DNA of 64,000 nucleotides, taken from Patescibacteria group bacterium (GTDB lineage: Bacteria; Patescibacteriota; Patescibacteriia; JBAZBY01). Within the stretch, counting starts at the first letter, position 1. Every line of letters begins with the position of its first letter. The position numbers and the translations under genes were made by a program. The notes under the pieces were generated by a model, which was not told the origin of the DNA, searched no databases, and saw nothing but the letters and a program-made list of their open reading frames with translations. This document shows positions 199-59,406 of the stretch, one piece after another. The stretch spans positions 961,130-1,025,129 of the forward strand of contig JBAZBY010000001.1 of NCBI GenBank assembly GCA_041671225.1. Direction: 5' to 3'.

Positions 199-261
199 AG
201 TAAATATTCAGAAGAGTCGAGGAGAAAGTCCCACAGGGATACGGTTATCCACAGTGTAAGG

Positions 262-331
262 TACTTTTCCCCACTTTTTTCCACTTTCTACCCCGTAAAT
301 CCATTCTACCCCACTTTCCCCTATTCGTCAA
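262..331 (-). promoter_or_regulatory. Pmra-like promoter (TTGACG-17-TAGAAT) with GTGGGG/GTGG direct repeats in the mraZ 5' UTR (candidate MraZ operator)
   Basis: Minus strand: -35 TTGACG at 331..326, 17-nt spacer, -10 TAGAAT at 308..303. GTGGGG at 314..309 and 274..269, GTGG at 284..281, CGGGG at 295..291, phased at roughly 10-bp multiples. MraZ is known to bind GTGGG direct repeats in its own promoter. Confidence 0.5.
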
Positions 332-354: not shown

Positions 355-1126
355 GCGTATAAAAAGGAACCGGTAGGAAGAGGTTAGTCTTCATACCGGT
401 TATCCGAGACGCTGTGTCGAGTTTCCTCCACTGACTCCGTAGAATCAGTCTTCCGGGGCACAGCTCCCGAATGCGAGAAAGGGGGGTGGTTGGCACTCTC
501 AAAGTGCCCAGGTTTGCTACGCGGGAAGAAGAGCCGCGCGAAGAAGGACCTGTCGTCATGGGGACGAAACCACCTTATGGTGCCGCCAAGCACCCGCAAA
601 AAGAACGGCGAGAGTGCCACGCCCCCTTGGTGTCCTAGGAGGGCAATAGACAGGGATGTGGATCCCGCCGCCAGGATCACGTTGTGGGCTGGGGTTTTTG
701 GGCCAAGTAATCGACCGCGGTGCAAGACCTACATGGCCTGCGAACCCGAGCTGACTCTCGAAGAGTCTGCAACGTATCCTGTAATGCATGTAACGAGCTA
801 AAGAGTGGGGCTCATCCCTCATAGCGCCGTGGTCAACCAACACCTTTATGAACCATCTGTCTGCGATGTCATGGTGAGGTCAACACACGAGCGTAGAAGG
901 ATTCGCCCTCCAAAGAAGAGGCGCTTCTTGCGCACGGAGCAAGGGAGATTCTGCTTCTCTCGATTCACTCACGCGGAGTTCAGGTCGAAAGAGTGAACAT
1001 CCCTCCAGCAGCGTCAGAAGCGCCCGGGCTTCCGGACAATCACGGAGATAAACCCCACTAGCGTGGACGGGCAGGGTTTGCAAACCGCAACTGCTCGGTC
1101 GCCGAAATTGGGCATGGAAAATGTGC
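355..1126 (-). ncRNA. Candidate large (~770 nt) structured non-coding RNA of unknown class
   Basis: ~60 % GC segment with only short overlapping ORFs in all six frames, no RBS and no coherent translation. Bracketed on the minus strand by a consensus promoter (1161..1133) and an intrinsic terminator (400..357). Many local hairpins. No RNase P P4, tmRNA T-arm or group II domain V motif recognised by eye. Confidence 0.3.
357..400 (-). terminator. Intrinsic terminator (minus strand) ending the GC-rich transcript upstream of Pmra
   Basis: Plus 369..400 ACCGGTAGGAAGAGGTTAGTCTTCATACCGGT forms stem ACCGGTAG/TACCGGT with inner stem GAAGA/TCTTC. On the minus-strand RNA it is followed by UCCUUUUUAU. 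Confidence 0.5.
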
Positions 1127-1132
1127 TGGCCT

Positions 1133-1161
1133 AAGCTACCAGCTTATGACATTTTTGTCAA
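1133..1161 (-). promoter_or_regulatory. Sigma70-type promoter TTGACA-17-TAGCTT reading into the GC-rich segment
   Basis: Minus strand: TTGACA at 1161..1156, 17-nt spacer, TAGCTT at 1138..1133. Lies directly after the uvrD stop (1165..1167). The same -10 hexamer is used at 33981..33986. Confidence 0.5.
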
Positions 1162-5347: not shown

Positions 5348-6556
5348 ATGAAACCCGTTATTCTCCATTGCGATCTCGATGCCTTCTTCGCCTCTGTTGA
5401 AGAGGTGCTGCATCCCGAACTTAAGGGTAAGCCTTTGATCGTTGGTGGAAACCCAGAAAAGCACCCAAAAACGCGGGGCATCGTTGCATGCCCTTCATAC
5501 GCTGCGCGGGCGCTCGGTATTAAAACGGCAATGCCGCTTAAAAAAGCATACCGTATCGCACCGCAAGCGATCTACCTTGAAGGAAGCTTTGCTCATTACC
5601 GTCAATTCTCAGAGCGCTTCTTTCAGATTCTTGCTGAATACAGTAATCATTTGGAACCGCGTTCACTGGATGAGGCATTCATTGATGTAACGCCAATAAC
5701 CTCATGGGTGATGGCGCATGAGTTGGCACAAGAAATCCGTGACCGCGTCCGTACTGAACTCGGCCTTGCGGTAAGTATTGGTGTGGGTACAAGCAAAACA
5801 ATCGCAAAGATCGCCTCCGAAGAAGCAAAGCCTAATGGAATGTGTGTTGTACATCCTGGCACAGAAGAACGATTTCTTGCTCCCCTGCCCGCATCTGCCA
5901 TGCCCGGTATTGGCAAGCAAACCCAAAAGTACCTTCGTATGAATGGATTACATACCATAGGCGACATTGCGCGCCTACCAGAACGACGAGTGATCCAACT
6001 TTTTGGATGGCGCGGAACCATACTGCAAGATAGGGCTCGTGGAATCGATACAAGACCAGTAAAAGCTTATGAGGATGTAAAGTCCGTGGGTCACGCTCAC
6101 ACCTTCAACGACGATCTCACAGATACAAAAGCGCTGCTGAGTACCGCTTCATATCTTTTAGAAAAAGCAGCGAGTAGGCTTCGGCGCCACAATACATATG
6201 CGCATGTCATAAAAATCACCATCCGATACTACGACTTCACGACAGAAAGCAAACAGTTGCGCCTGCAACACCCAACAGATGACCAGCATTTACTGTATGA
6301 AAAAATTGAACAGCTTTTTCATGTGCTCAGAAAACCGCGCCCCATAAGACTCATCGGAGTCACGCTCAGCGAGCTCACGCCAAATCCGCGCCAGCATTCC
6401 TTCCCATTCTCACGATTGATGCGCATTCAGCATATTCAACGTGCCGTAGACACGCTCAGAGACCGCTTTGGTTTTGAAGCGGTTCTTTCTGGCAGTACGA
6501 TGCCAGTCAAACGCGCCTTTGGCAACGCTGGGCGCACGCTCTTCTATCAGCGTTGA
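5348..6556 (+). CDS. dinB: DNA polymerase IV (Y-family, DinB)
   Basis: ILHCDLDAFFASVE N-terminus, SIGVG motif, little-finger domain. Sits immediately downstream of lexA. Confidence 0.9.
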   Translation: MKPVILHCDLDAFFASVEEVLHPELKGKPLIVGGNPEKHPKTRGIVACPSYAARALGIKTAMPLKKAYRIAPQAIYLEGSFAHYRQFSERFFQILAEYSNHLEPRSLDEAFIDVTPITSWVMAHELAQEIRDRVRTELGLAVSIGVGTSKTIAKIASEEAKPNGMCVVHPGTEERFLAPLPASAMPGIGKQTQKYLRMNGLHTIGDIARLPERRVIQLFGWRGTILQDRARGIDTRPVKAYEDVKSVGHAHTFNDDLTDTKALLSTASYLLEKAASRLRRHNTYAHVIKITIRYYDFTTESKQLRLQHPTDDQHLLYEKIEQLFHVLRKPRPIRLIGVTLSELTPNPRQHSFPFSRLMRIQHIQRAVDTLRDRFGFEAVLSGSTMPVKRAFGNAGRTLFYQR

Positions 6557-50652: not shown

Positions 50653-50715
50653 AACAAAAATACCTAAGATATATGCAATTGTACTATATTTCCTTTGTTT
50701 TGCATATATATGAAC

Positions 50716-50744
50716 TTGACAGAAATACATAGATATGGTATGAT
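50716..50744 (+). promoter_or_regulatory. Near-consensus sigma70 promoter P1 (TTGACA-17-TATGAT) at the island edge
   Basis: TTGACA 50716..50721, 17-nt spacer, TATGAT 50739..50744. Confidence 0.55.
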
Positions 50745-50820
50745 GCTCGGTTACACTGAAATGGGGGGAAATAGTGCTGGTTGAATACCTGTCAGCATCT
50801 ATTGTTCTATCTCCAAGAAC

Positions 50821-50849
50821 TTGACAAATTGGTGATAAAGTGGTATTAT
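50821..50849 (+). promoter_or_regulatory. Near-consensus sigma70 promoter P2 (TTGACA-17-TATTAT)
   Basis: TTGACA 50821..50826, 17-nt spacer, TATTAT 50844..50849. About 25 nt upstream of the first copy of the conserved island leader element. Confidence 0.55.
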
Positions 50850-50873
50850 ATGCTGTTACGGTAAAAGACCGCT

Positions 50874-50950
50874 CATTACAAGAAAGCATTTCAGCGAGGA
50901 ATCTACGGTATCACACCTTGTGTGGGGTACTGTGGATCCCTCGCTGATCA
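50874..50950 (+). repeat. Island leader element copy 1: CATTACAA-N8-TTCAGCGAGGA-[37-nt loop]-TCCCTCGCTGA
   Basis: Seen directly. The same architecture recurs at 51642..51720, 52498..52592, 53754..53835, 54908..55047, 56146..56230, 57199..57264 and 58205..58290. Confidence 0.6.
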
Positions 50951-51051
50951 AAAGGCGAGACAACGCATCGGCAAATACGCCGATGTAACACCCCCCTACG
51001 GTTTAACCCCGTAGCGTTGTACCAGAACGAAATCTGGTAGAGGCAATAACG

Positions 51052-51423
51052 ATGCGTATCAACGAGCTTCTCCTGGTCGATCCCGAGTCCAACTGCACGC
51101 AACCAACAGTACCCGTCCCAGAAGGGAAAAATCACTACGCATTCCAGGTCGCCATAATCCGTCAGGACGACGGTTCCTATACTTGGCGCGGACAAAGCCA
51201 GTATCTGCCCAAGGGGGTTTTGATGGGATTCGCCCTCATCCACTTCGTCGGCGATGATGATGAGAAAGATGAAATCCCACTCGATATCAACCCCGTAGCG
51301 GTTGAGATGCTGGGAATCCATGGAGCCACTTTTCGTGGGTGGACGTGGGATAACCACTACGTCGACTGGGCGGTAAGTAACATGGGTCGCGTTTTTGCAG
51401 CCCAGTTCTCTCACCTCGCCTAA
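51052..51423 (+). CDS. Hypothetical protein (island gene 1)
   Basis: 123-aa ORF with GC-rich codon usage, preceded by a ~100-nt structured leader. No family recognised. Confidence 0.45.
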   Translation: MRINELLLVDPESNCTQPTVPVPEGKNHYAFQVAIIRQDDGSYTWRGQSQYLPKGVLMGFALIHFVGDDDEKDEIPLDINPVAVEMLGIHGATFRGWTWDNHYVDWAVSNMGRVFAAQFSHLA

Positions 51424-51641
51424 CTCCTCACTCGTTCACTCTTCGCCGAAGACACGGCCTAGAGCCCCACCCTGGGGATCAAGGGGAGGCTGGCATGAGC
51501 CCGCAGCCGATGCGTCGCAGCATACACGACGCAAAGTGGAGCACCACACGGGCAACGTTCTTCGGGAGAGACGCACAATGCTTCGGCAACGTGCGTCTCC
51601 CCTTCACCTGAGTTAATCACGCACTGTGGTTGGTTCAGAAG

Positions 51642-51720
51642 AAGGTGTTCATTACAACAATTTCAGCGAGGAATCTACGGTATCACGCCTTGTGCGGGGT
51701 ACTGTGGATCCCTCACTGAA
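51642..51720 (+). repeat. Island leader element copy 2 (GGTTCAGAAGAAGGTGTTCATTACAA...TTTCAGCGAGGA...CCCTCACTGAA)
   Basis: ~90 % identical to copy 1 over the hairpin. Lies in the 1.2-kb gap between island genes 1 and 2. Confidence 0.6.
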
Positions 51721-52610
51721 GCTCCTAACAATCAATACGTCAGCGAAGGAAACGAGGGGGTGAGTCCCTCCACTCTCCCCCTCTTTCCCCTCGCTGGCAA
51801 TAACGTTTAGCGAGGCTCCGGCATCCGTCCACAGGATTGATGCCAAGTCCAAGGAGGGCTCCGATGGAAAAGAAGCAGCCCACAAGCAGCACCAAGAAGG
51901 CCCCAGACGGTTACCGCCACCTGACCCGCGCGGAGGCCGATGCCATCTGGCGTCGGGCATTCTGGCTCGCTTGGACCTCGCGGTACTAGCGAAGTTCTCG
52001 AGGGAAAGCTCTCACAACAATTGTCCTTTGGCATCTGGCGCGGCAAGCAAAACCCGCGCCTCCCTCTCCAGCACAGAAGACTTCTGTTCTGAAGAGGGAT
52101 TCTCCTACGCCCCGTCTTCGCAAAGCTTTGACGGGCTACGGCGAACAAGTGCTCATTCTCAATCTTATGAGGGAGCGGAAACGGCGGTTCAAGAATTAAG
52201 CCTCCTCGGCCGCACGCCCGCTCCCTCACCCCCCAATGATCCTGCAACCGCAGAATCAACAGTCCCCATGGGGAACGGCATACGAGGTGGATAAGTGAAT
52301 GCTCTTCACGCCCCTCGAAACCGTTCCCCAAAACTTTCGCTCGCACTGTTATGGAGGGGGATGCCGAAACGGCTTTTTGCCGCACGGCTCACGGCAACAG
52401 GAGCAGACAGCCTGGTTCACACTCGGCTGCCCGCCTCCGACTGCCACGCGGGAATGTGCATTCGTGCACCAACTCCCGCATCACCTCCAGAACAGTCCGT
52501 ACGAAGAAGGTTCATTACAATATGATGGTTTGTACCACGACCCTTATAAGAGGATGCTTCACGTCCTTTCATAAGGGTCGTATGGTACGACTTCTGGCGA
52601 TCACCGGCCG

Positions 52611-53207
52611 ATGGTGAAAAAGGAACGGCAATCCGTGAAAAAAAAGATCGTGTTGGCCGGTCCACCTCGGTCCGGCAAGTCCTGTATGCGTGAGGGGTTG
52701 AAACAAGCCCTTTTCACAATCCCCGGCTCGCCGTATCCGTATGTGATTACGGCCTGCCCGGACGGTGAAGGGGCGTGGTTCCAGGAAACTGTGAACAACA
52801 ACCCCGAGCTTGCGGCGGCGTGCAAGGCGGCCTACAAAGCCAAGTTCACGCCGGAGTTCGTCGAGCGCATCAAGACTTCGGTCGAGAGGTGCTCACTCGA
52901 GCTCACGCTCGTGGACATCGGGGGCATCACCTCCGTTGAAAACGAGCAGATCTGCGCCGCGGCGACGCACATCGTCATCCTCGCGGGTGACATGAGCAAG
53001 GTCGCCGAGTGGCGCACGTTCGCGGCAAAGCTCGGGCTTACCGTGGTTGCGGAAATCCATTCCGACTACCACGGAACCGAGGACACCGTTGAGCGCGTTA
53101 GCTCTGACGGAATCCTCCGGGGGTCCGTGCATCACCTCGAACGGGGTGAGCAAATTGCGGATCGTCCGATGATCCGCGCACTCGCCGAGCATCTCCTCTC
53201 CATCTGA
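52611..53207 (+). CDS. P-loop NTPase / small kinase-like protein (island gene 2)
   Basis: Walker A IVLAGPPRSGKSC. LVDIGG (Walker B / switch-II-like). ~190 aa. Alternative GTG start at 52635 has a better RBS. Confidence 0.5.
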   Translation: MVKKERQSVKKKIVLAGPPRSGKSCMREGLKQALFTIPGSPYPYVITACPDGEGAWFQETVNNNPELAAACKAAYKAKFTPEFVERIKTSVERCSLELTLVDIGGITSVENEQICAAATHIVILAGDMSKVAEWRTFAAKLGLTVVAEIHSDYHGTEDTVERVSSDGILRGSVHHLERGEQIADRPMIRALAEHLLSI

Positions 53208-53285
53208 GTTTCTGAAGGAGGGCAACACCTACCCTCTCAACCCGACACACGCCGGCTCAAGGTGAAGCTGGCACTGGAGGGCAAC

Positions 53286-53630
53286 ATGCCCGTGTACAAG
53301 ATCGACCGAGTCGCCGTAACCGCCACCTCTGCAGCCGTCCCCGCCGACCTGTTCAAGGTAGGCTTCGGGGACCCCGCCCAGAACGATGCCATCGTTCGGG
53401 CGGCCGAAATCCGCATCCCCGAGCTCGGCGAGCTCGGTGGCGAGCTGGCCCTCATCAACGGGCCGGCCAGCCTCCCCGTGGCGGTGGTCATCGCCCACCG
53501 TCTACTCCACGCCTACGGCGCCATCGGGGTCTTCGACCCCAAGATGAGCGCCTACGTGGTTGCGGCGGCCCACGGCGACAAGTTCGCTGTGGGGGACCTG
53601 ATCCCCGCCGAAACCGTCGTCGAGTCGTAG
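53286..53630 (+). CDS. Hypothetical small protein (island gene 3), probably co-transcribed with the P-loop gene
   Basis: GGAGGG 6 nt upstream of ATG 53286. 114 aa with no recognisable family. Only 55 nt after gene 2 and no leader element between them. Confidence 0.45.
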   Translation: MPVYKIDRVAVTATSAAVPADLFKVGFGDPAQNDAIVRAAEIRIPELGELGGELALINGPASLPVAVVIAHRLLHAYGAIGVFDPKMSAYVVAAAHGDKFAVGDLIPAETVVES

Positions 53631-53753
53631 ACGACCATCGTTCACCTCTCCTAACCTAGCATCCGCTGGGTGGCAGATAGGAGATTCGTCCTTTCCGGAG
53701 CGCAATCTGCCTGCGCTCCGACTTTCCGAGCACATCACAATACTCGTGGTGCG

Positions 53754-53835
53754 TTCAGAAGGTTAAAATGTTCATTACAACTATTCAGCGAGGAAATCTG
53801 TTGTGCTATATGCACGATGGGTTTCCTCGCTGAAG
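53754..53835 (+). repeat. Island leader element copy 4
   Basis: GTTCAGAAGGTTAAAATGTTCATTACAACTATTCAGCGAGGA-[loop with GTGCtatatGCAC]-CCTCGCTGAAG. Confidence 0.6.
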
Positions 53836-53986
53836 TTCGTCGGCTCCGGTGAGGTTTGCCCCGTTCCGAGGGGATTGCGCGACGCAATGCACTGCCCCGC
53901 TTGCAGGGGATTGAGAATGGAGGGCTTCACGCCCGCAATTACCCTACACAGGTGCTCTAGAAAATGAGCACGGAAAGAGAACGGAC

Positions 53987-54820
53987 ATGTCACGGAATCT
54001 CAACGTCGTCTTCAACTACGGCAACACTGTCACCATCGAGGAGATGGAACCCAACACCATCTACCTCGACGGCGCATGTCGCGGTCCGGCGATCGACGCC
54101 GCCCGCAAGGCCTACTCCTTCGACCACCACGCGGAGTGTCTGCGGTTCGCGACCCTCTCGACGTGCGAGCAGGTCTTGCTCGCTCTCGAACTCGGCCTCA
54201 ACCCCGTGAACTTCCGGGTCGTAATGAACGACCTGGACGCGGACGGGAGCCTCTCACTGTGGATCCTCCGAAACCCCGACAAGGCACAGAACCCGCAAGT
54301 CCGCGCTATGGTCGCGCAGATCGGATTCGTGGATTCCCACGGTCCGGTTCGCGTTCCGGCCAAGCTCCACAAGAGTCTCAGTCGGAACCCCCGCGTCCCG
54401 CAGACGATCGACATGCTCTGGGAGGATCAGGGCAAGATCGATGCGTGGTTCGCGGGAGGTGATGAAGCGCTCCCCGAGCCGTTCAGATTCCCGTGCGCGC
54501 CGGCCTTCGGGCTGACGCAGGACGGTGAGCTCGTCGAATTCGACGCGGCCGCGGACTTCGCCGACATGTATGCCGCCGGCTGCATGGTCGGAGTGATCTG
54601 TGGTGCTGGGCCGGAAAACACCATGGGCTACACCGTGGGCAAGCGCTCCGACTTCGTCGCCTACGACATCCCCGGATTCCTCGCTCGTATGAACGAGCTG
54701 GAAGCCGGCTGGGGCGGCGGCTCCACCATCGGTGGGGCTCCTCGTCTGGAAGGTGGGAAGCGATCCGCGCTTCCTGTCGAAACCGTCAAACGGGAGTTCC
54801 GCTCCATCGCGAGCATGTAG
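53987..54820 (+). CDS. Hypothetical protein (island gene 4). Contains FDHH and DLDADG motifs, but not in canonical DHH-family order
   Basis: 277 aa with GC-rich codons. Followed by the conserved post-stop hairpin CCCCTCCTCGGCAGCCGGAAATACCGGAT. Confidence 0.45.
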   Translation: MSRNLNVVFNYGNTVTIEEMEPNTIYLDGACRGPAIDAARKAYSFDHHAECLRFATLSTCEQVLLALELGLNPVNFRVVMNDLDADGSLSLWILRNPDKAQNPQVRAMVAQIGFVDSHGPVRVPAKLHKSLSRNPRVPQTIDMLWEDQGKIDAWFAGGDEALPEPFRFPCAPAFGLTQDGELVEFDAAADFADMYAAGCMVGVICGAGPENTMGYTVGKRSDFVAYDIPGFLARMNELEAGWGGGSTIGGAPRLEGGKRSALPVETVKREFRSIASM

Positions 54821-54907
54821 CCCCCTCCTCGGCAGCCGGAAATACCGGATCCCGCCTTCGCCTTTCGGGCTACGGCGGATAAAGAAGATTGATCTTTTCT
54901 CCTGTGG

Positions 54908-55047
54908 GGAGCGTGACTGCCAACGCTCCTCCCAACACCCGAGTCCCGGATATACATCCGAGGTTCAGGAAGTTGGAATGATCTTTACAAATACACTTCA
55001 GCGAGGAGATCTGTACAGAATATTTCTGTATGGGTTCTCTCGCTGAA
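54908..55047 (+). repeat. Island leader element copy 5, extended module: GGAGCG-TGACTGCCAA-CGCTCC / TCCCAACACCCGAG / hairpin / TTCAGGAAGTTGGAA / CTTTACAAA / TTCAGCGAGGA-loop-TCTCGCTGAAG
   Basis: Pairs with copy 6 at 56146..56230 through compensatory substitutions (GGAGCG/CGCTCC versus GGAATG/CATTCC; CGGATatacATCCG versus TTGAATCatagATTCAA). Confidence 0.65.
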
Positions 55048-55239
55048 GCCATATCCAAAGGCCAACGCGAGTGCTGCCCCGAGGCGTGGGGATTTCGTCA
55101 GGTTCTTGTTCTTGCCCCGTATGTGGGGATTGCGTAGAAAGCGCTTTCCACGAACGTGGAGGCAAAGCAACCTGTGCGGTAACCCGCACGTCGAGCCCAA
55201 GCCAAACCGAAAGGTACGGGCGAAGGGCAAGGAGTAGCC

Positions 55240-56082
55240 ATGTCAGTATATCGCGTGTTCACGATTTCTTCCGGCGCAGTCAGTGAAGGCGCCAAAATCG
55301 ACATCCTCCCCCTGAAGGGCGCGGGAATTACGATTCCCGCCGTCATCATCGGCGAGGAGGGGCGAGGTCGCGAACGCGGCGTCGTCCCCGTCGGAAACCC
55401 GCCGACCGTCCCCTGCCCGCGACGTGGGCAGGAAATTTCCGGCTCGACTCTTGCCAGATTCAAGGCGCCGGAAAGGCCGGCGACCTGCGAGTGTGGCGTT
55501 GCGCTTCCCCTGTGGGGGAAGCGTCCGGACGATTCCGGGTACTGGTTCGTCCAGCACCCGGATACCGGAAGCGTCCCCAGCCGCCTGATGGCCGCCGAGA
55601 TCGGGGCCACCAAGGCGGGAAAGCCCAAGTTCTGGGCAAAGCCCGCGGCGGACACGACGGAAAAGGTCCTCGTCGTATTCCGAACCCGGATGGGGTACCG
55701 GGGTGGAAACGACCACACCGGCGACCGGAACGGCTTGTTCCGAGTCGGTGACTCCTGGGACCCCTGGGCGGCGTCGGGGTTGACGCTCGAGGAGGCGCAG
55801 GCTCTCTGCGCCGAGCACGAGGTCGACTCGTCGCGTATCCGCCCGGACGGCTTCCTGCCGTTCCCGGGCGAGGTTATCACCCGCGGCTACATCGCCCAAG
55901 GCGGCGCGGGTCGGATGGGCGGCGGCGAACAGCTCGTCGCGCTCGTCCCGAAAGACGTCGTCTTCAGGACGTCCTACTCCGGCCGACTCTACGGCGGCCC
56001 CGGCGCCCACTACTACGTGTGGGACGGCGAGAAGGTTCTCGCCGCCACGTGGGAAGAAAGGTCGGCGGCCGACCTGTTCTAG
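55240..56082 (+). CDS. Hypothetical protein (island gene 5)
   Basis: AAGGAG RBS. 280 aa, Gly/Pro-rich. No family recognised. Confidence 0.45.
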   Translation: MSVYRVFTISSGAVSEGAKIDILPLKGAGITIPAVIIGEEGRGRERGVVPVGNPPTVPCPRRGQEISGSTLARFKAPERPATCECGVALPLWGKRPDDSGYWFVQHPDTGSVPSRLMAAEIGATKAGKPKFWAKPAADTTEKVLVVFRTRMGYRGGNDHTGDRNGLFRVGDSWDPWAASGLTLEEAQALCAEHEVDSSRIRPDGFLPFPGEVITRGYIAQGGAGRMGGGEQLVALVPKDVVFRTSYSGRLYGGPGAHYYVWDGEKVLAATWEERSAADLF

Positions 56083-56145
56083 CCTCCCCTCCTCAGGCAG
56101 ACCGGAAATTCCGGATGAGGAGCAACGCTCTTTTACCCCTGCGGA

Positions 56146-56230
56146 GGAATGTGACTGCCAACATTCCTTCCAACACCCGAGCTTTGAATCATAGATTCAA
56201 GGTTCAGGAAGTTGGAAAGTTCATTACAAA
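56146..56230 (+). repeat. Island leader element copy 6 (extended module, see 54908..55047)
   Basis: GGAATGTGACTGCCAACATTCC-TTCCAACACCCGAG-CTTTGAATCATAGATTCAAGG-TTCAGGAAGTTGGAAAG-TTCATTACAAA. Followed by further hairpins to ~56330, including a 13-bp stem CCCTCCTTTTTAG...TTAAAAAGGAGGG. Confidence 0.65.
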
Positions 56231-56420
56231 TCAATTCTACTTCACCCCCATGAGATATTCTGCAGGGGTTCACTTCCCTCCTTTTTAGCCCTTTCATATG
56301 AGAGTGTTAAAAAGGAGGGAGGTACGGCACCGTGGTGGTGCTGTGGTCCCTTCGGTTCCGAAGGAGTACGTCCTGTGATGGGACACGCTCATTTCGGCCC
56401 CGCTTGGCTCGGGGTAACTC

Positions 56421-56918
56421 ATGAAGGAGGAAGCCATGTTCCAGATTCTCTTGACCCGCTCGCATTTTGAAGCCCTCGTTCTCGCCGCGACGGACATCGC
56501 GGCGAACGGTCGGCCATGGGGGCCAGTCGTAACCGAGACCGGGTGGGCGACCCGGTTCGATGGTGGCGGCAACGTCCGCACCCCCAGCGACTTCGTCTCG
56601 CTATACGGCGAGGCAAGTAGGTGGGGGAAAAAGGAAGGGCACGAGCCCTGCTTGTACGCACTCGTGGAGTGCGATGCCTGGTCGCACGACCGCGACCGGG
56701 CGTGCCGCTACTTCCTGCGGCACAAAACGTTTGCCCAGAGCGACCTCGTCCTGGACAACGACGGACTCGACCATGTCGAATCCGCGGCGACTCGCGGTGG
56801 CGAATGGGAGGTCGTCGCCGAGACGGACGTGCCTGAGCACGCCCGAAAGGTGATGGAGAAATCCATCGCCACCGTTCGCGAGCTCTTCGGGCAGGGAGGA
56901 GACTTCTTCGAGGTCTAG
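56421..56918 (+). CDS. Hypothetical protein (island gene 6)
   Basis: GAAGGAGG RBS. 165 aa. Followed by post-stop hairpin CCTCCTCGGCAGTGAGGAGG and a TGACTGTCCA-loop hairpin (GGACG-TGACTGTCCA-CGTCC). Confidence 0.45.
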   Translation: MKEEAMFQILLTRSHFEALVLAATDIAANGRPWGPVVTETGWATRFDGGGNVRTPSDFVSLYGEASRWGKKEGHEPCLYALVECDAWSHDRDRACRYFLRHKTFAQSDLVLDNDGLDHVESAATRGGEWEVVAETDVPEHARKVMEKSIATVRELFGQGGDFFEV

Positions 56919-57593
56919 CTACCCTGCCCCTCCTCGGCAGTGAGGAGGCACAGTACACCCGAGGACGTGACTGTCCACGTCCTCACAACTACAGCACCGG
57001 AGGTGCTTGATGAGACCGCTGCAGTTGTAGCGGGCCAAGGGGAGTGATTCTCTCCAGATGGGGCCCTCAAAATACCGCCAAACATAAACATCCCCGCTGC
57101 AGGGCACGCAGCACGCGGGAGGGGCAGCAACGAACAACCGCTGCCTCTCCCCACCCTTCCGAACGTTGAACACTTGTTCAGCCTTCAGACAGGTGATCGC
57201 TCATTCTCAACACTTCAGCAAGGAACTTTGAACCAACGTGTTTGGCGCAAAGTCCTTTGCTGAAACGGATACGCAAGGGTACGTATTCCATGTTCGGGAG
57301 AAACGAAACGACCCATGGCGCTTACACGCACGCCGACGGGCACACGCCTCTCAGGTGGAATACCGATGTATGGAGAGGACTAGTCCGAACAAAATCTAGT
57401 CCTCTCCGCCTTTCCCTCAATATGGTCATTTACAAATCATTGACAAATCGTGCAAATATGCTAGGGTAAGCTGTTCATTTTTGTGCAGCGTGCACGTCTG
57501 ATGGCAACAAAAAAGCCGCAAGACGTGTCTGCTGCACCGCTCTCACAGCAGATGGCATCATGCCCTTTTCACATGAGAGCAAAGGAGGAGCAC

Positions 57594-58088
57594 GTGAAGA
57601 GCTCCAAGGGTTTCACCCTCATCGAGCTGATGATCATCGTGGTCATCATCGGCATCTTGGCGGCCATCGCCATCCCGAACTTCCTCTCCATGCAGGACCG
57701 TGAGCGTGAGGGCAGCGTGAAGGCCAACATGCACACCGTCCAGCTGGCGGTGGAGGACTTCTCGACCGAGAACAACGGCTTGTACGCCACGTCGGCCACG
57801 GACGCGCTCCCGAGCGGCGAGATCGTCCAGGACATGTGCCCGGGAAACGTGTGGCCGGAAAACCCGTTCGGAGGAGACGTGACGGAGGTCTACTGGACCA
57901 ACAACTTCTCCGACATCGTCCCGTACGTCCCTGCGAGGGACGACACGACGACGTGCCGATGGGGCGGCTTGGAGGTGGAGCCGCAGCGCGGCGATATCTA
58001 CATCATGAGCGACAGCGCTGGGTACGCCATCTACGGTCTCGGCGCCAGCGGGCAGCCGCTGAGCCTGATGCTCCGCAACGGCTACTGA
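57594..58088 (+). CDS. Type IV pilin-like protein (island gene 7), GTG start
   Basis: AAAGGAGGA RBS 5 nt upstream of GTG 57594. Leader VKSSKG|FTLIELMIIVVIIGILAAIAIPNF is a class III prepilin signal. Confidence 0.65.
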   Translation: MKSSKGFTLIELMIIVVIIGILAAIAIPNFLSMQDREREGSVKANMHTVQLAVEDFSTENNGLYATSATDALPSGEIVQDMCPGNVWPENPFGGDVTEVYWTNNFSDIVPYVPARDDTTTCRWGGLEVEPQRGDIYIMSDSAGYAIYGLGASGQPLSLMLRNGY

Positions 58089-58204
58089 CGTCCGCTCCTT
58101 TGCAGGATAACTACCTGCCGTACAGCAAGATTGGGAGACGCTTGTGGTCTCCCCTTTTCCGAGCCACAGAACCACTCATCCGGCTATGCCGGATTCGGGT
58201 TCTG

Positions 58205-58290
58205 GGTTCAGAAGAGGTTGCCCTTTACAAATATTTCAGCGGGGGAATTCTGTACCTCATGTTTTGCGGTGCAGTATTCCCTCGCCGAAG
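58205..58290 (+). repeat. Island leader element copy 8 (GGTTCAGAAGAGGTTGCCCTTTACAAATATTTCAGCGGGGGA-loop-TCCCTCGCCGAAG)
   Basis: Same architecture as the other copies, with a variant stem. Confidence 0.55.
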
Positions 58291-58347
58291 TAGTAGTACG
58301 CGAGGCATCATCCGCGGCAACGGCTGCGGACAAGGAGGGTCTCACCT

Positions 58348-58914
58348 ATGAGACTTGTTGGACGGGTTCCTGGAGAGAACGAACGGTTGGTGGCAGCCAT
58401 GGCCCGGCGTGGAATTCCCGCCAAGGTCGTGACCAACGCGACCGTCGTGAACCTGCTTATGGTGGACGGGCTGGGCGTGTACCAGCTTCCCCCGCGTATC
58501 AAGCGCGCTCATCTCCGCATCCAGGTTGCAGAGTACGGCGGGTGGAAGCAGGAAACCCAAGTCATCTGCAGCCCAGGCGGGCACCCCATGCGGCCGTTCT
58601 ACATTCCGCGCCGGGGAAACCTGGCTGGTGGCAAGTTCCACGCGCTGTTTTCTTGCGTGGAGTTCGTAGGCCTGGAGCTCAAGGGCAGCAACGTTCTGAA
58701 GCTCACCAGCGTTGCCATCGAGGTGGATGGCAAGACCGCCCGGATCGTGCCCAGCACACTCTGGGAGGGCAATGTCGACGCCTTCCCCGACGAACTGTGG
58801 AAGTTCCGCGACGCGGCAGATGCCGCGCTCACCAAGGCTGCCTGCCGCGATTGCACACACGTGCACTATGCGGCCATGCCCCCAACCGAACCCCAACCCC
58901 AGAGGAAGAAATGA
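58348..58914 (+). CDS. Hypothetical protein (island gene 8)
   Basis: AAGGAGGG RBS. 188 aa. Stop overlaps the next start (ATGA). Confidence 0.45.
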   Translation: MRLVGRVPGENERLVAAMARRGIPAKVVTNATVVNLLMVDGLGVYQLPPRIKRAHLRIQVAEYGGWKQETQVICSPGGHPMRPFYIPRRGNLAGGKFHALFSCVEFVGLELKGSNVLKLTSVAIEVDGKTARIVPSTLWEGNVDAFPDELWKFRDAADAALTKAACRDCTHVHYAAMPPTEPQPQRKK

Positions 58915-59321
58915 ACATCACGATCCCGAATCTCGCAATCGAAGCCGCGCGCGGCTTCAAGGCAGTCATCGTACACCAGGACAACAACTGGGAGCCGGAC
59001 AGGGCTCCGCAGATGACCGAAGTGAACGGTGAATGGCTGCTTGCCGACGCCGAACAGTTCGTCGGCCCAGACAAGCAGTTCAAGGTCGCGGTGATTGGCT
59101 TCGCAACACAGTCCGAGGCGTTCACCTCGTACTGCAACCGCAACGACGCCGGGCTGGTCATCGGCGGGCCGCCGATGAACCACCCGGATAATCCGGATCT
59201 AGCGATCAAGAAGTTCTTCTGGGACGATGCCAGGAAGATCATGTTCCTGCTCGTCCCGGGCTACTGGGTCTACATGACACCGGGTGGTAACTGGAACAAC
59301 CAGTTCACCGCACTCCCGTAA
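58911..59321 (+). CDS. Hypothetical protein (island gene 9), translationally coupled to gene 8
   Basis: MNITIPNLAIEAARGF... 136 aa. The track ORF 58131..59321 is a 5' over-extension. Confidence 0.45.
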   Translation: MNITIPNLAIEAARGFKAVIVHQDNNWEPDRAPQMTEVNGEWLLADAEQFVGPDKQFKVAVIGFATQSEAFTSYCNRNDAGLVIGGPPMNHPDNPDLAIKKFFWDDARKIMFLLVPGYWVYMTPGGNWNNQFTALP

Positions 59322-59406
59322 CTTCAACGGCTGACACCTCAGCTACGCCCACTGCTCCTTCATCCCTCAACCGTGTTTGGGACGGTACCGCATAAAAAAC
59401 CGTCCA

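Follow-up and report, generated by a model that had tools for sequence, protein, structure and literature searches.

A candidate large structured non-coding RNA between uvrD and mraZ in a small clade of Patescibacteria

Large structured non-coding RNAs (ncRNAs) are rare in bacteria. Most of those that have been characterised proved important, as ribozymes, ribonucleoprotein scaffolds or RNA-only assemblies. The closest described systems include ROOL and GOLLD, which are often found in prophages or beside tRNA genes, and OLE, which adjoins the oap genes. These three large, ornate bacterial ncRNAs have been the subject of a cryo-electron microscopy study (PMC12286853). Here we describe a predicted transcript of ~766 nucleotides (nt) encoded on the minus strand between uvrD and mraZ. 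It lies in a 64,000-nt stretch of the genome of a Patescibacteria group bacterium (contig JBAZBY010000001.1; the whole stretch is called the window), and has counterparts in three related genomes, at loci L006, L007 and L008. We consider it moderately probable that the segment is a stand-alone, clade-specific gene for a structured ncRNA, with a promoter of its own and, in the window, its own terminator.

Like OLE, GOLLD and ROOL, the uvrD-mraZ RNA is non-coding, exceeds 400 nt and contains many helices. It also shares with them the features by which it was found, namely a lack of open reading frames (ORFs), raised GC content and strong structure. It differs in fitting none of their covariance models and in being known from four genomes of one Patescibacteria clade. 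Its sequence is barely conserved, its length ranges over ~430-1080 nt, and long regular helices dominate it in place of a conserved core built from junctions and pseudoknots. The unit is on the chromosome, between uvrD and mraZ. The initial annotation of the window had placed the unit in the size range of the OLE, GOLLD and ROOL class. The similarity goes no further than size, given the narrow distribution, the ~2.5-fold length variation and a make-up of largely long, fast-evolving helices.

Two described RNAs occupy a similar position. UpsM of the Rhodobacteraceae is, like the predicted RNA of the window, structured, terminator-bounded, clade-restricted and located directly upstream of mraZ in the same orientation; it is 206 nt long and constitutes the 5' part of the mraZ mRNA, made from the mraZ promoter (PMC5089854). 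Unlike UpsM, the uvrD-mraZ RNA has its own promoter, and the mraZ promoter Pmra (331-303) and the MraZ boxes (314-269) lie 3' of its terminator (400-359). It is also 2-5 times larger. The mraW motif (RF01746) of the Actinomycetales is a short element, about 100 nt. Here too, an RNA structure is conserved ahead of the mraZ/mraW (rsmH) cell-division operon, and the motif has been rated a likely cis-regulator (PMC2864571). Its position upstream of mraZ fits, but its model matches neither the window nor the three homologues.

6S RNA and decoys of the CsrB/RsmZ type have their own sigma-70 promoter and terminator, and their structure is conserved far beyond their sequence; the length of the decoys varies between species. 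The uvrD-mraZ RNA would likewise be a promoter- and terminator-bounded ncRNA in which structure is kept over sequence. It differs from these RNAs in having no Rfam match to 6S or CsrB. Its fold is not one rod around a central bubble, and it has no repeated loop motif or internal direct repeat.

The uvrD-mraZ locus and its counterparts in related genomes

In the window, uvrD is located on the minus strand at 3249-1165, with the stop codon TAG at 1165. Its product matches the UvrD-helicase Pfam families. The contig annotation calls zero genes between uvrD and mraZ. The following elements are found in this gap.

1156-1161, minus strand: -35 hexamer TTGACA, starting 3 nt past the uvrD stop codon
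1133-1141, minus strand: extended -10 element TGG-TAGCTT (TGGTAGCTT), with TGnTAGnnT in all four genomes
361-1126, minus strand: predicted ~766-nt non-coding transcript, promoter to terminator, with a strong fold and no family match
359-400, minus strand: predicted intrinsic terminator, hairpin 400-369 followed by UCCUUUUUAU, free energy -19.2 kcal/mol
303-331, minus strand: Pmra promoter TTGACG-17-TAGAAT from the promoter scan, flanking and outside the RNA
269-314, minus strand: five GTGG(G/A)-type MraZ boxes at 10-11-nt spacing, flanking, between Pmra and mraZ

The -35 hexamer (1161-1156) is followed by a 17-nt spacer, the last three bases of which are TGG, and by TAGCTT at 1138-1133. TAGCTT matches TATAAT at three of six positions, and the site is absent from the list of a simple promoter scan because this -10 hexamer is weak. 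The initial annotation had reported a consensus promoter TTGACA-17-TAGCTT at 1161..1133. The coordinates are correct; the TG preceding TAGCTT indicates a putative promoter of the extended -10 type instead of a simple consensus one. The full motif, TTGACA-N13/14-TGnTAnnnT, is present in six copies in the window against 0.04 expected (~150-fold excess), and three of the other five copies precede correctly oriented ORFs (at 12.4, 34.0 and 57.4 kb). It looks like the strong promoter type of this organism, of which the site behind uvrD would be one copy. Spacing places the predicted transcription start near 1126.

A small hairpin, GCUGG-N9-CCAGC followed by ACAUUUU (window 1115-1141, minus strand), overlaps the -10 element and start of this promoter. 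Its counterpart in L006 (4177-4190) is listed by the terminator scan. The hairpin may be a uvrD terminator nested inside the promoter of the next unit.

At the other end, the terminator arms (368-381 and 388-401) are 14 nt each, 93 % complementary and separated by a 6-nt loop, with the U5 tract directly 3' of the hairpin. A simple scan missed this terminator because of one internal mismatch. It ends ~38 nt upstream of Pmra, which matches the consensus promoter at 10 of 12 positions and carries a complete MraZ operator, all 3' of the RNA. The box pattern fits MraZ operators as described (PMC12957436). Both the terminator and the separate mraZ promoter had been proposed in the initial annotation, and both stand as predicted elements. 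The GC content of ~60 % that it gave for the segment does not: the value for 355-1161 is 55.6 %, reaching 58-60 % only in 401-700, compared to 51.9 % for the whole window and 49.9 % for uvrD.

The closest relatives of the window UvrD are 84, 74 and 72 % identical, and the next are at most 63 % identical (Kerfeldbacteria-like). L006, L007 and L008 have the same gene order as the window, lexA-dinB-...-uvrD-gap-mraZ-rsmH. The window contig was assembled from the reads of SRR18595301, and those of the relatives from SRR22388171, ERR14788029 and SRR22387818. The gap measures 972 nt in the window, 1272 in L006, 872 in L007 and 667 in L008, and the predicted RNAs ~766, ~1,050-1,080, 610-655 and 430-465 nt, respectively. 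The promoter, TTGACA-N13/14-TGn-TAGnnT with a 16-17-nt spacer, is found at the equivalent site in all three relatives, hence in four of four genomes. The sequence GCTTGACA in the -35 region is the sole 8-mer common to the four gaps.

Outside the promoter, only the last ~150 nt, comprising Pmra, the MraZ boxes and the leader, are well conserved across the gaps. Two blocks of the RNA part remain 62-68 % identical between the window and L006, and blastn found no similarity to the RNA part in L007 or L008. Fourfold-degenerate sites of the adjacent uvrD are 31-46 % identical among the four genomes, about the level of unrelated sequences. These sites are saturated, and anything unconstrained should now be random.

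The element appears restricted to one small Patescibacteria clade, judging by the four genomes that carry it. UvrD relatives at 58-63 % identity are without it. In the more distant L009, L010 and L049, SpoU, NUDIX and/or glycosyltransferase genes are located between uvrD and mraZ, and L050 has another context. A search of genome contigs for more homologues returned only relatives of ~50 % identity, without synteny. The contigs of three further members of the clade (L046, L047 and L037; MraZ 78-83 % identical) end 80-145 nt upstream of mraZ, at the expected 3' edge of the RNA. Assemblies seem to break in the hairpin-rich region, which may hide more members of the family.

Several observations concern the region upstream of mraZ. 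In the outgroups L009 (7689-7903) and L010 (7069-7467), a promoter-like site, TTGACA-N14-TGT-nnnnnT, is found 60-95 nt upstream of Pmra. Between this site and Pmra is a palindrome, GTTCC-N4-6-GGAAC, extended in L009 to a perfect 20-bp ACTGTTCCCCGGGGAACAGT; it could be a putative operator before the dcw operon. An exact 24-mer match to the core of the window MraZ operator, AAGTGGAAAAAAGTGGGGAAAAGT, is found in 35 metagenome contigs (L011-L045), whose GC content ranges from 34 to 70 %. In 32 of the 35, an mraZ homologue begins 34-100 nt further downstream, and in 30 of these its product is no more than 28-35 % identical to the window MraZ; operator DNA is therefore far better conserved than the repressor. 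None of the 35 loci returned by this metagenome scan, which represent many phyla, carries the RNA. A perfect DnaA box, TTATCCACA, is located at 245-253 (plus strand), within the 5' leader of mraZ, and does not vary among the four syntenic genomes. The window has only three perfect boxes in all, and no GC-skew switch is near this one, which hints at a DnaA input to the division operon rather than a replication origin.

Coding potential and known RNA families

Segment 355-1161 contains about 12 ORFs of at least 30 amino acids, of which six reach at least 60. The initial annotation had counted six short ORFs and considered none a plausible protein; its count is corrected here, and the Pfam search returned zero matches for the ORFs of this segment. 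Comparison of the four gaps by tblastx gave a signal only at the mraZ promoter region and no conserved reading frame. An intact conserved ORF in homologues, which would have suggested a frameshifted pseudogene in the window, was thus looked for in all four syntenic gaps and not found. In the alignments of the window and L006, indels are not multiples of three and break the frame.

The longest ORF, of 113 amino acids, has one marginal match of 17 residues among 1.84 billion representative proteins. The matching sequence (L063 1078-1778) is a spurious 204-residue ORF read across a 177-nt unit that is tandemly repeated four times (98 % matches), on an unrelated 2-kb metagenome contig without DNA similarity. 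The ORF was rejected as a protein, its sole match being due to chance. A pseudogene of the outgroup SpoU, NUDIX or GT2 genes was also rejected, as tblastn with the outgroup proteins finds no remnant.

Comparison with Rfam covered 4227 models and the four homologous loci. An Rfam 15 cmscan of the window at the gathering score found no family in the unit. With relaxed filters and E<=10, region 200-1300 gave four chance-level matches only, the best at 17 bits, and the gaps of L006, L007 and L008 gave nothing at E<=10. The initial annotation had proposed testing the models of OLE, GOLLD, ROOL, HEARO, raiA, RNase P and tmRNA; none matches. This holds for the first five in the window and the three homologous gaps, and for RNaseP_bact_a/b at E<=10 in the window and homologues, the element moreover being absent at the outgroup locus. 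For tmRNA, Rfam gives no match and ARAGORN reports only three tRNAs in the window; the unit itself yields neither a tRNA nor a tmRNA. The models of 6S, SRP, group I/II introns and riboswitches do not match either. Rfam and ARAGORN thus agree with the earlier failure to see RNase P, tmRNA, SRP or group II signatures.

The literature search found no described family or paper covering the uvrD-mraZ element. A repeated or mobile element was rejected, since the window holds no second copy and the unit has no internal direct repeats or terminal inverted repeats. Phage and plasmid collections gave no match to the unit, and three scans of viral contigs gave none or chance seed matches only. A decoy DNA or RNA for MraZ was rejected as well, GTGG(G/A) boxes not being enriched within the RNA.

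Folding and covariation

The four gaps were folded on the sense strand from the inferred start site, and the minimum free energy (MFE) was expressed as a z-score against shuffled sequences. The z-scores are -6.3 for the window, -7.1 for L006, -13.4 for L007 and -7.5 for L008. On the antisense strand they are -5.2, -5.0, -8.9 and -2.7, respectively, and the MFE is weaker by 7, 56, 47 and 34 kcal/mol. Control segments from uvrD range from -1.2 to +0.4. A second folding run on the window unit gave -5.3 and -5.0. The RNA has a z of -7.2, whereas 25 control segments, each 766 nt long and taken from across the window, have a mean z of -0.86 (sd 1.39, minimum -3.5). A sliding scan with 150-nt windows is too short for the long-range helices of this RNA. 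About 66 % of the bases are paired in the MFE structure of the window RNA.

The sense strand contains 29, 50, 27 and 18 G.U pairs in the window, L006, L007 and L008, and the antisense strand 24, 14, 5 and 15. G.U pairs correspond to C.A mismatches on the opposite strand, and the structure therefore has the polarity of uvrD and mraZ.

The following domains are predicted in the window RNA.

1027-1103, minus strand: P1, a long 5' hairpin of four stacked helices with CCGUCCA (1064-1070) at the apex, from the MFE structure and covariance model
919-1025, minus strand: P2 domain, with the long-range closing helix GGGCGCUUCU (1016-1025) / AGAAGCGCCU (919-928), an inverted repeat
481-626, minus strand: multi-branch domain M, with a G-rich/C-rich closing helix and hairpins CAGGU...ACCUG and GGCAC...GUGCC
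402-472, minus strand: three-way junction, with a 14-bp closing helix, CCCCGGAAG as the joining strand, and two hairpins, one of 8 bp with a UACG loop and one short with GAAA

When the four genomes were folded independently, CCGU(C/U)CA was found in the apical loop of a P1-type 5' hairpin in every one, L008 carrying CCGUUCA. A P1 covariance model built from the window and L006 matches L007 at 6140-6220, exactly the predicted site, with an E-value of 0.049. It did not retrieve L008, and no consensus structure emerged when the four P1 hairpins were aligned with MAFFT. No conserved pseudoknot partner was found for the CCGUYCA motif. In P2, the consensus with L006 has an invariant 10-bp closing helix and covarying inner helices.

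The three-way junction is located immediately 5' of the terminal hairpin in the window, L007 and L006. Its topology and register were predicted independently in L007 (6615-6693) and L006 (5050-5137). The shared structure is a 14-bp helix with one bulge, an 8-10-nt joiner containing CCCGGRA, an 8-9-bp tetraloop hairpin and a short hairpin.

Compensatory changes were counted in two regions of the window and L006, using sequence-based MAFFT alignments and RNAalifold structures. Domain M has 38 consensus pairs, of which eight are compensatory, compared to 0-2 in slid controls; one of 500 shuffles reaches the observed value. The 5' domain has 48 consensus pairs, nine of them compensatory, compared to 0-1, and two of 500 shuffles reach this value. 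The sequence-based alignments thus contain 17 compensatory pairs in total. In structure-fitted alignments, P1 has 24 pairs and the junction 26, all canonical, with 17 compensatory pairs each against 1-5 in slid controls; these counts lean towards structure by construction.

The unit is non-coding, its promoter and structure are conserved, and its strand is defined. The case for it is carried by the combination of z-scores in four genomes, strand asymmetry, the promoter, the lack of coding potential and covariation. The structured, promoter- and terminator-bounded minus-strand unit of the initial annotation is upheld by the conserved promoter, folding and covariation, its transcription remaining a prediction. 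From these comparisons the window and L006 are firmly homologous; the case for L007 is good, and that for L008 is weak, drawing on the promoter, synteny, a P1-like hairpin and strong folding.

Competing explanations and significance

The reading that we favor is a self-contained gene at ~1161-359 (minus strand) for a ~766-nt, heavily base-paired ncRNA. Transcription would start at a strong promoter of the house type, with a consensus -35 and an extended -10, directly after uvrD. It would proceed in the direction of uvrD and mraZ and stop at the hairpin and U-tract ~38 nt before the MraZ-controlled Pmra, and the terminator would insulate the dcw promoter. Helices are under selection and sequence is not, homologues of ~430-1080 nt having comparably strong folds and near-zero shared primary sequence. 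The 5' hairpin with CCGUYCA is kept in all four, and the 3' three-way junction in at least three of the four. The product would most likely be a stand-alone, abundant folded RNA whose shape does the work, for instance by offering proteins a scaffold or a decoy to bind.

Several points weigh against this reading. Transcription, the RNA ends, abundance and any partner are what we infer. The simple scan lists no canonical terminator at the 3' ends of L006, L007 and L008, where large GC stems close the RNAs and the tracts after them are only moderately rich in U, and read-through into mraZ is possible. With four sequences from one clade, covariation statistics are weak, and they derive in part from structure-fitted alignments. 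Two of the three covariance-model tests failed to link more divergent members: the domain M model did not detect L007 or L008, and L006 was not retrieved by the junction model, which had been built from the window and L007. For L008, homology is unproven apart from the promoter, synteny and the P1-like hairpin. Many helices are long and near-perfect, and the length varies ~2.5-fold, unlike in RNAs with a conserved tertiary core. Finally, a GC-rich island at ~50.7-59.4 kb also has very negative z-scores, putative ORFs included. By itself, therefore, a low z-score is not enough to identify an RNA gene in this genome.

The alternative that survives best, possible although we consider it unlikely, is that the unit yields a transcript or leader acting in cis on the dcw operon from upstream. 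Transcription from the strong upstream promoter would partly stop at the 3' hairpin, and read-through would enter mraZ and bypass or displace MraZ at Pmra. The fold would tune termination or RNA stability, as in the Rhodobacter UpsM leader. The non-canonical terminators of L006, L007 and L008 are consistent with this. So is the location of the unit, always directly upstream of Pmra and in the same orientation, but this adjacency is not independent evidence, as the whole neighborhood is syntenic. The promoter-like site upstream of Pmra in L009 and L010 suggests that the RNA expanded into a second, ancestral promoter of dcw, and UpsM (PMC5089854) and the mraW motif (PMC2864571) are precedents upstream of mraZ/mraW. 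However, a length of 430-1080 nt of variable helices far exceeds the need of any known attenuator, and MraZ boxes are not enriched inside the RNA. We prefer the stand-alone gene because Pmra, with its own 10/12 consensus and full operator, is complete, separately regulated and 3' of the terminator, because the window terminator is strong, and because the RNA is far larger than any attenuator.

It is improbable that the segment is a non-functional spacer, a decayed gene or mobile-element remnant that is rich in hairpins by chance. The very fast sequence turnover with large indels, the narrow distribution and the SpoU, NUDIX and glycosyltransferase genes at the outgroup position could be explained in this way. 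However, all four genomes have kept the promoter, strong strand-specific folding and compensatory pairs even though neutral sites are saturated. The outgroup genes have left no remnant detectable by tblastn, the sequence is not repeated elsewhere in the window, and the phage and plasmid collections hold no match. The genome is ~1 Mb, and Patescibacteria genomes of this size retain little spacer DNA.

A very divergent form of a known RNA (RNase P, tmRNA, 6S, SRP, OLE, GOLLD, ROOL, HEARO or raiA) or a remnant of a group I/II intron is highly improbable. Size and degree of structure are compatible with it, and GGAAGCCCGGGC in the window and L006 vaguely recalls what we take to be the RNase P P4 strand, GGAAAGUCCGGGC. 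However, none of the 4227 Rfam models matches the four homologues even at E<=10 with relaxed filters, and ARAGORN finds no tmRNA. A housekeeping RNA would extend beyond one clade, whereas the outgroups are without the element at this locus. We give equally little credence to a DNA-level element, in which single-stranded DNA hairpins, which can also be G.T-tolerant and strand-asymmetric, would serve replication, recombination or transposition near the perfect DnaA box at 245-253, as the unit has a conserved promoter at one end and a hairpin with a U-tract at the other, no terminal inverted repeats or repeated copies, no recombinase, transposase or Rep genes nearby, and a single DnaA box with no GC-skew switch, for which reason a replication origin or terminus was also rejected.

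The GC-rich island at 50700-59400 shows no blastn similarity to the uvrD-mraZ RNA. Its GC content is 57-68 %, nearly all of its 600-nt segments have z-scores of -4.5 to -10.7, including those with putative ORFs, and of the 20 most negative 150-nt windows found in all 64 kb, 17 fall within it. Its genes encode a P-loop protein, a Csx3-like protein (PF09620, E 1.6e-5) and a pilin-like protein. Within it, two consensus promoters, TTGACA-N14-TGnTAnnAT, are located at 50716-50744 and 50821-50849 (plus strand). The ~1.75 kb behind them contains no convincing ORF and has no Pfam or Rfam match, with z-scores of -6 to -10. The stretch 50716-52610 (plus strand) may encode another structured transcript of this genome, larger than the first.

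A repeated unit of 40-75 nt, GGTTCAGrAAG..GTTCATTACAAnnATTTCAGCGrGG (plus strand), occurs every 0.77-2 kb through the island. Sequence comparison places its copies as follows.

~50870, plus strand: copy of the repeat unit
51632, plus strand: copy of the repeat unit
53742, plus strand: copy of the repeat unit
54952, plus strand: copy of the repeat unit
56191, plus strand: copy of the repeat unit
58205, plus strand: copy of the repeat unit

Two of the copies extend as AATCTACGGTATCAC..GGGGTACTGTGGATCCCTC, 95 % identical over 60 nt. The repeat resembles a cassette boundary or a shared 5' leader.

With four members, the uvrD-mraZ RNA is a solid candidate and not an established class; it would add a new family to a general kind already known, the orphan large structured ncRNAs of bacteria. 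It is atypical for this kind in its confinement to one small clade of the candidate phyla radiation (CPR), its ~2.5-fold length range, its long regular helices and its minimal sequence conservation. A more far-reaching possibility, which we regard as doubtful, is that it founds a class, not described before, of structured RNAs in Patescibacteria (CPR) that are large, at 0.4-1.1 kb. Such a class would have its own biochemical or architectural role and a standing like that of OLE, ROOL and GOLLD. It might be tied to the dcw operon, and the same genome would contain further unrelated large structured transcripts, such as the 1.75-kb stretch at 50.7-52.6 kb.

Helices are conserved here and sequence is not, and RNAs of this kind are missed by searches based on sequence or covariance models. 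A folded, non-coding sequence of 0.4-1.1 kb is kept in genomes of ~1 Mb, behind what looks like one of their strongest promoter types. Its retention while silent sites became saturated argues for a real function, one that current families do not explain. Its position before the MraZ-controlled division operon provides a concrete, testable hypothesis for what that function may be.

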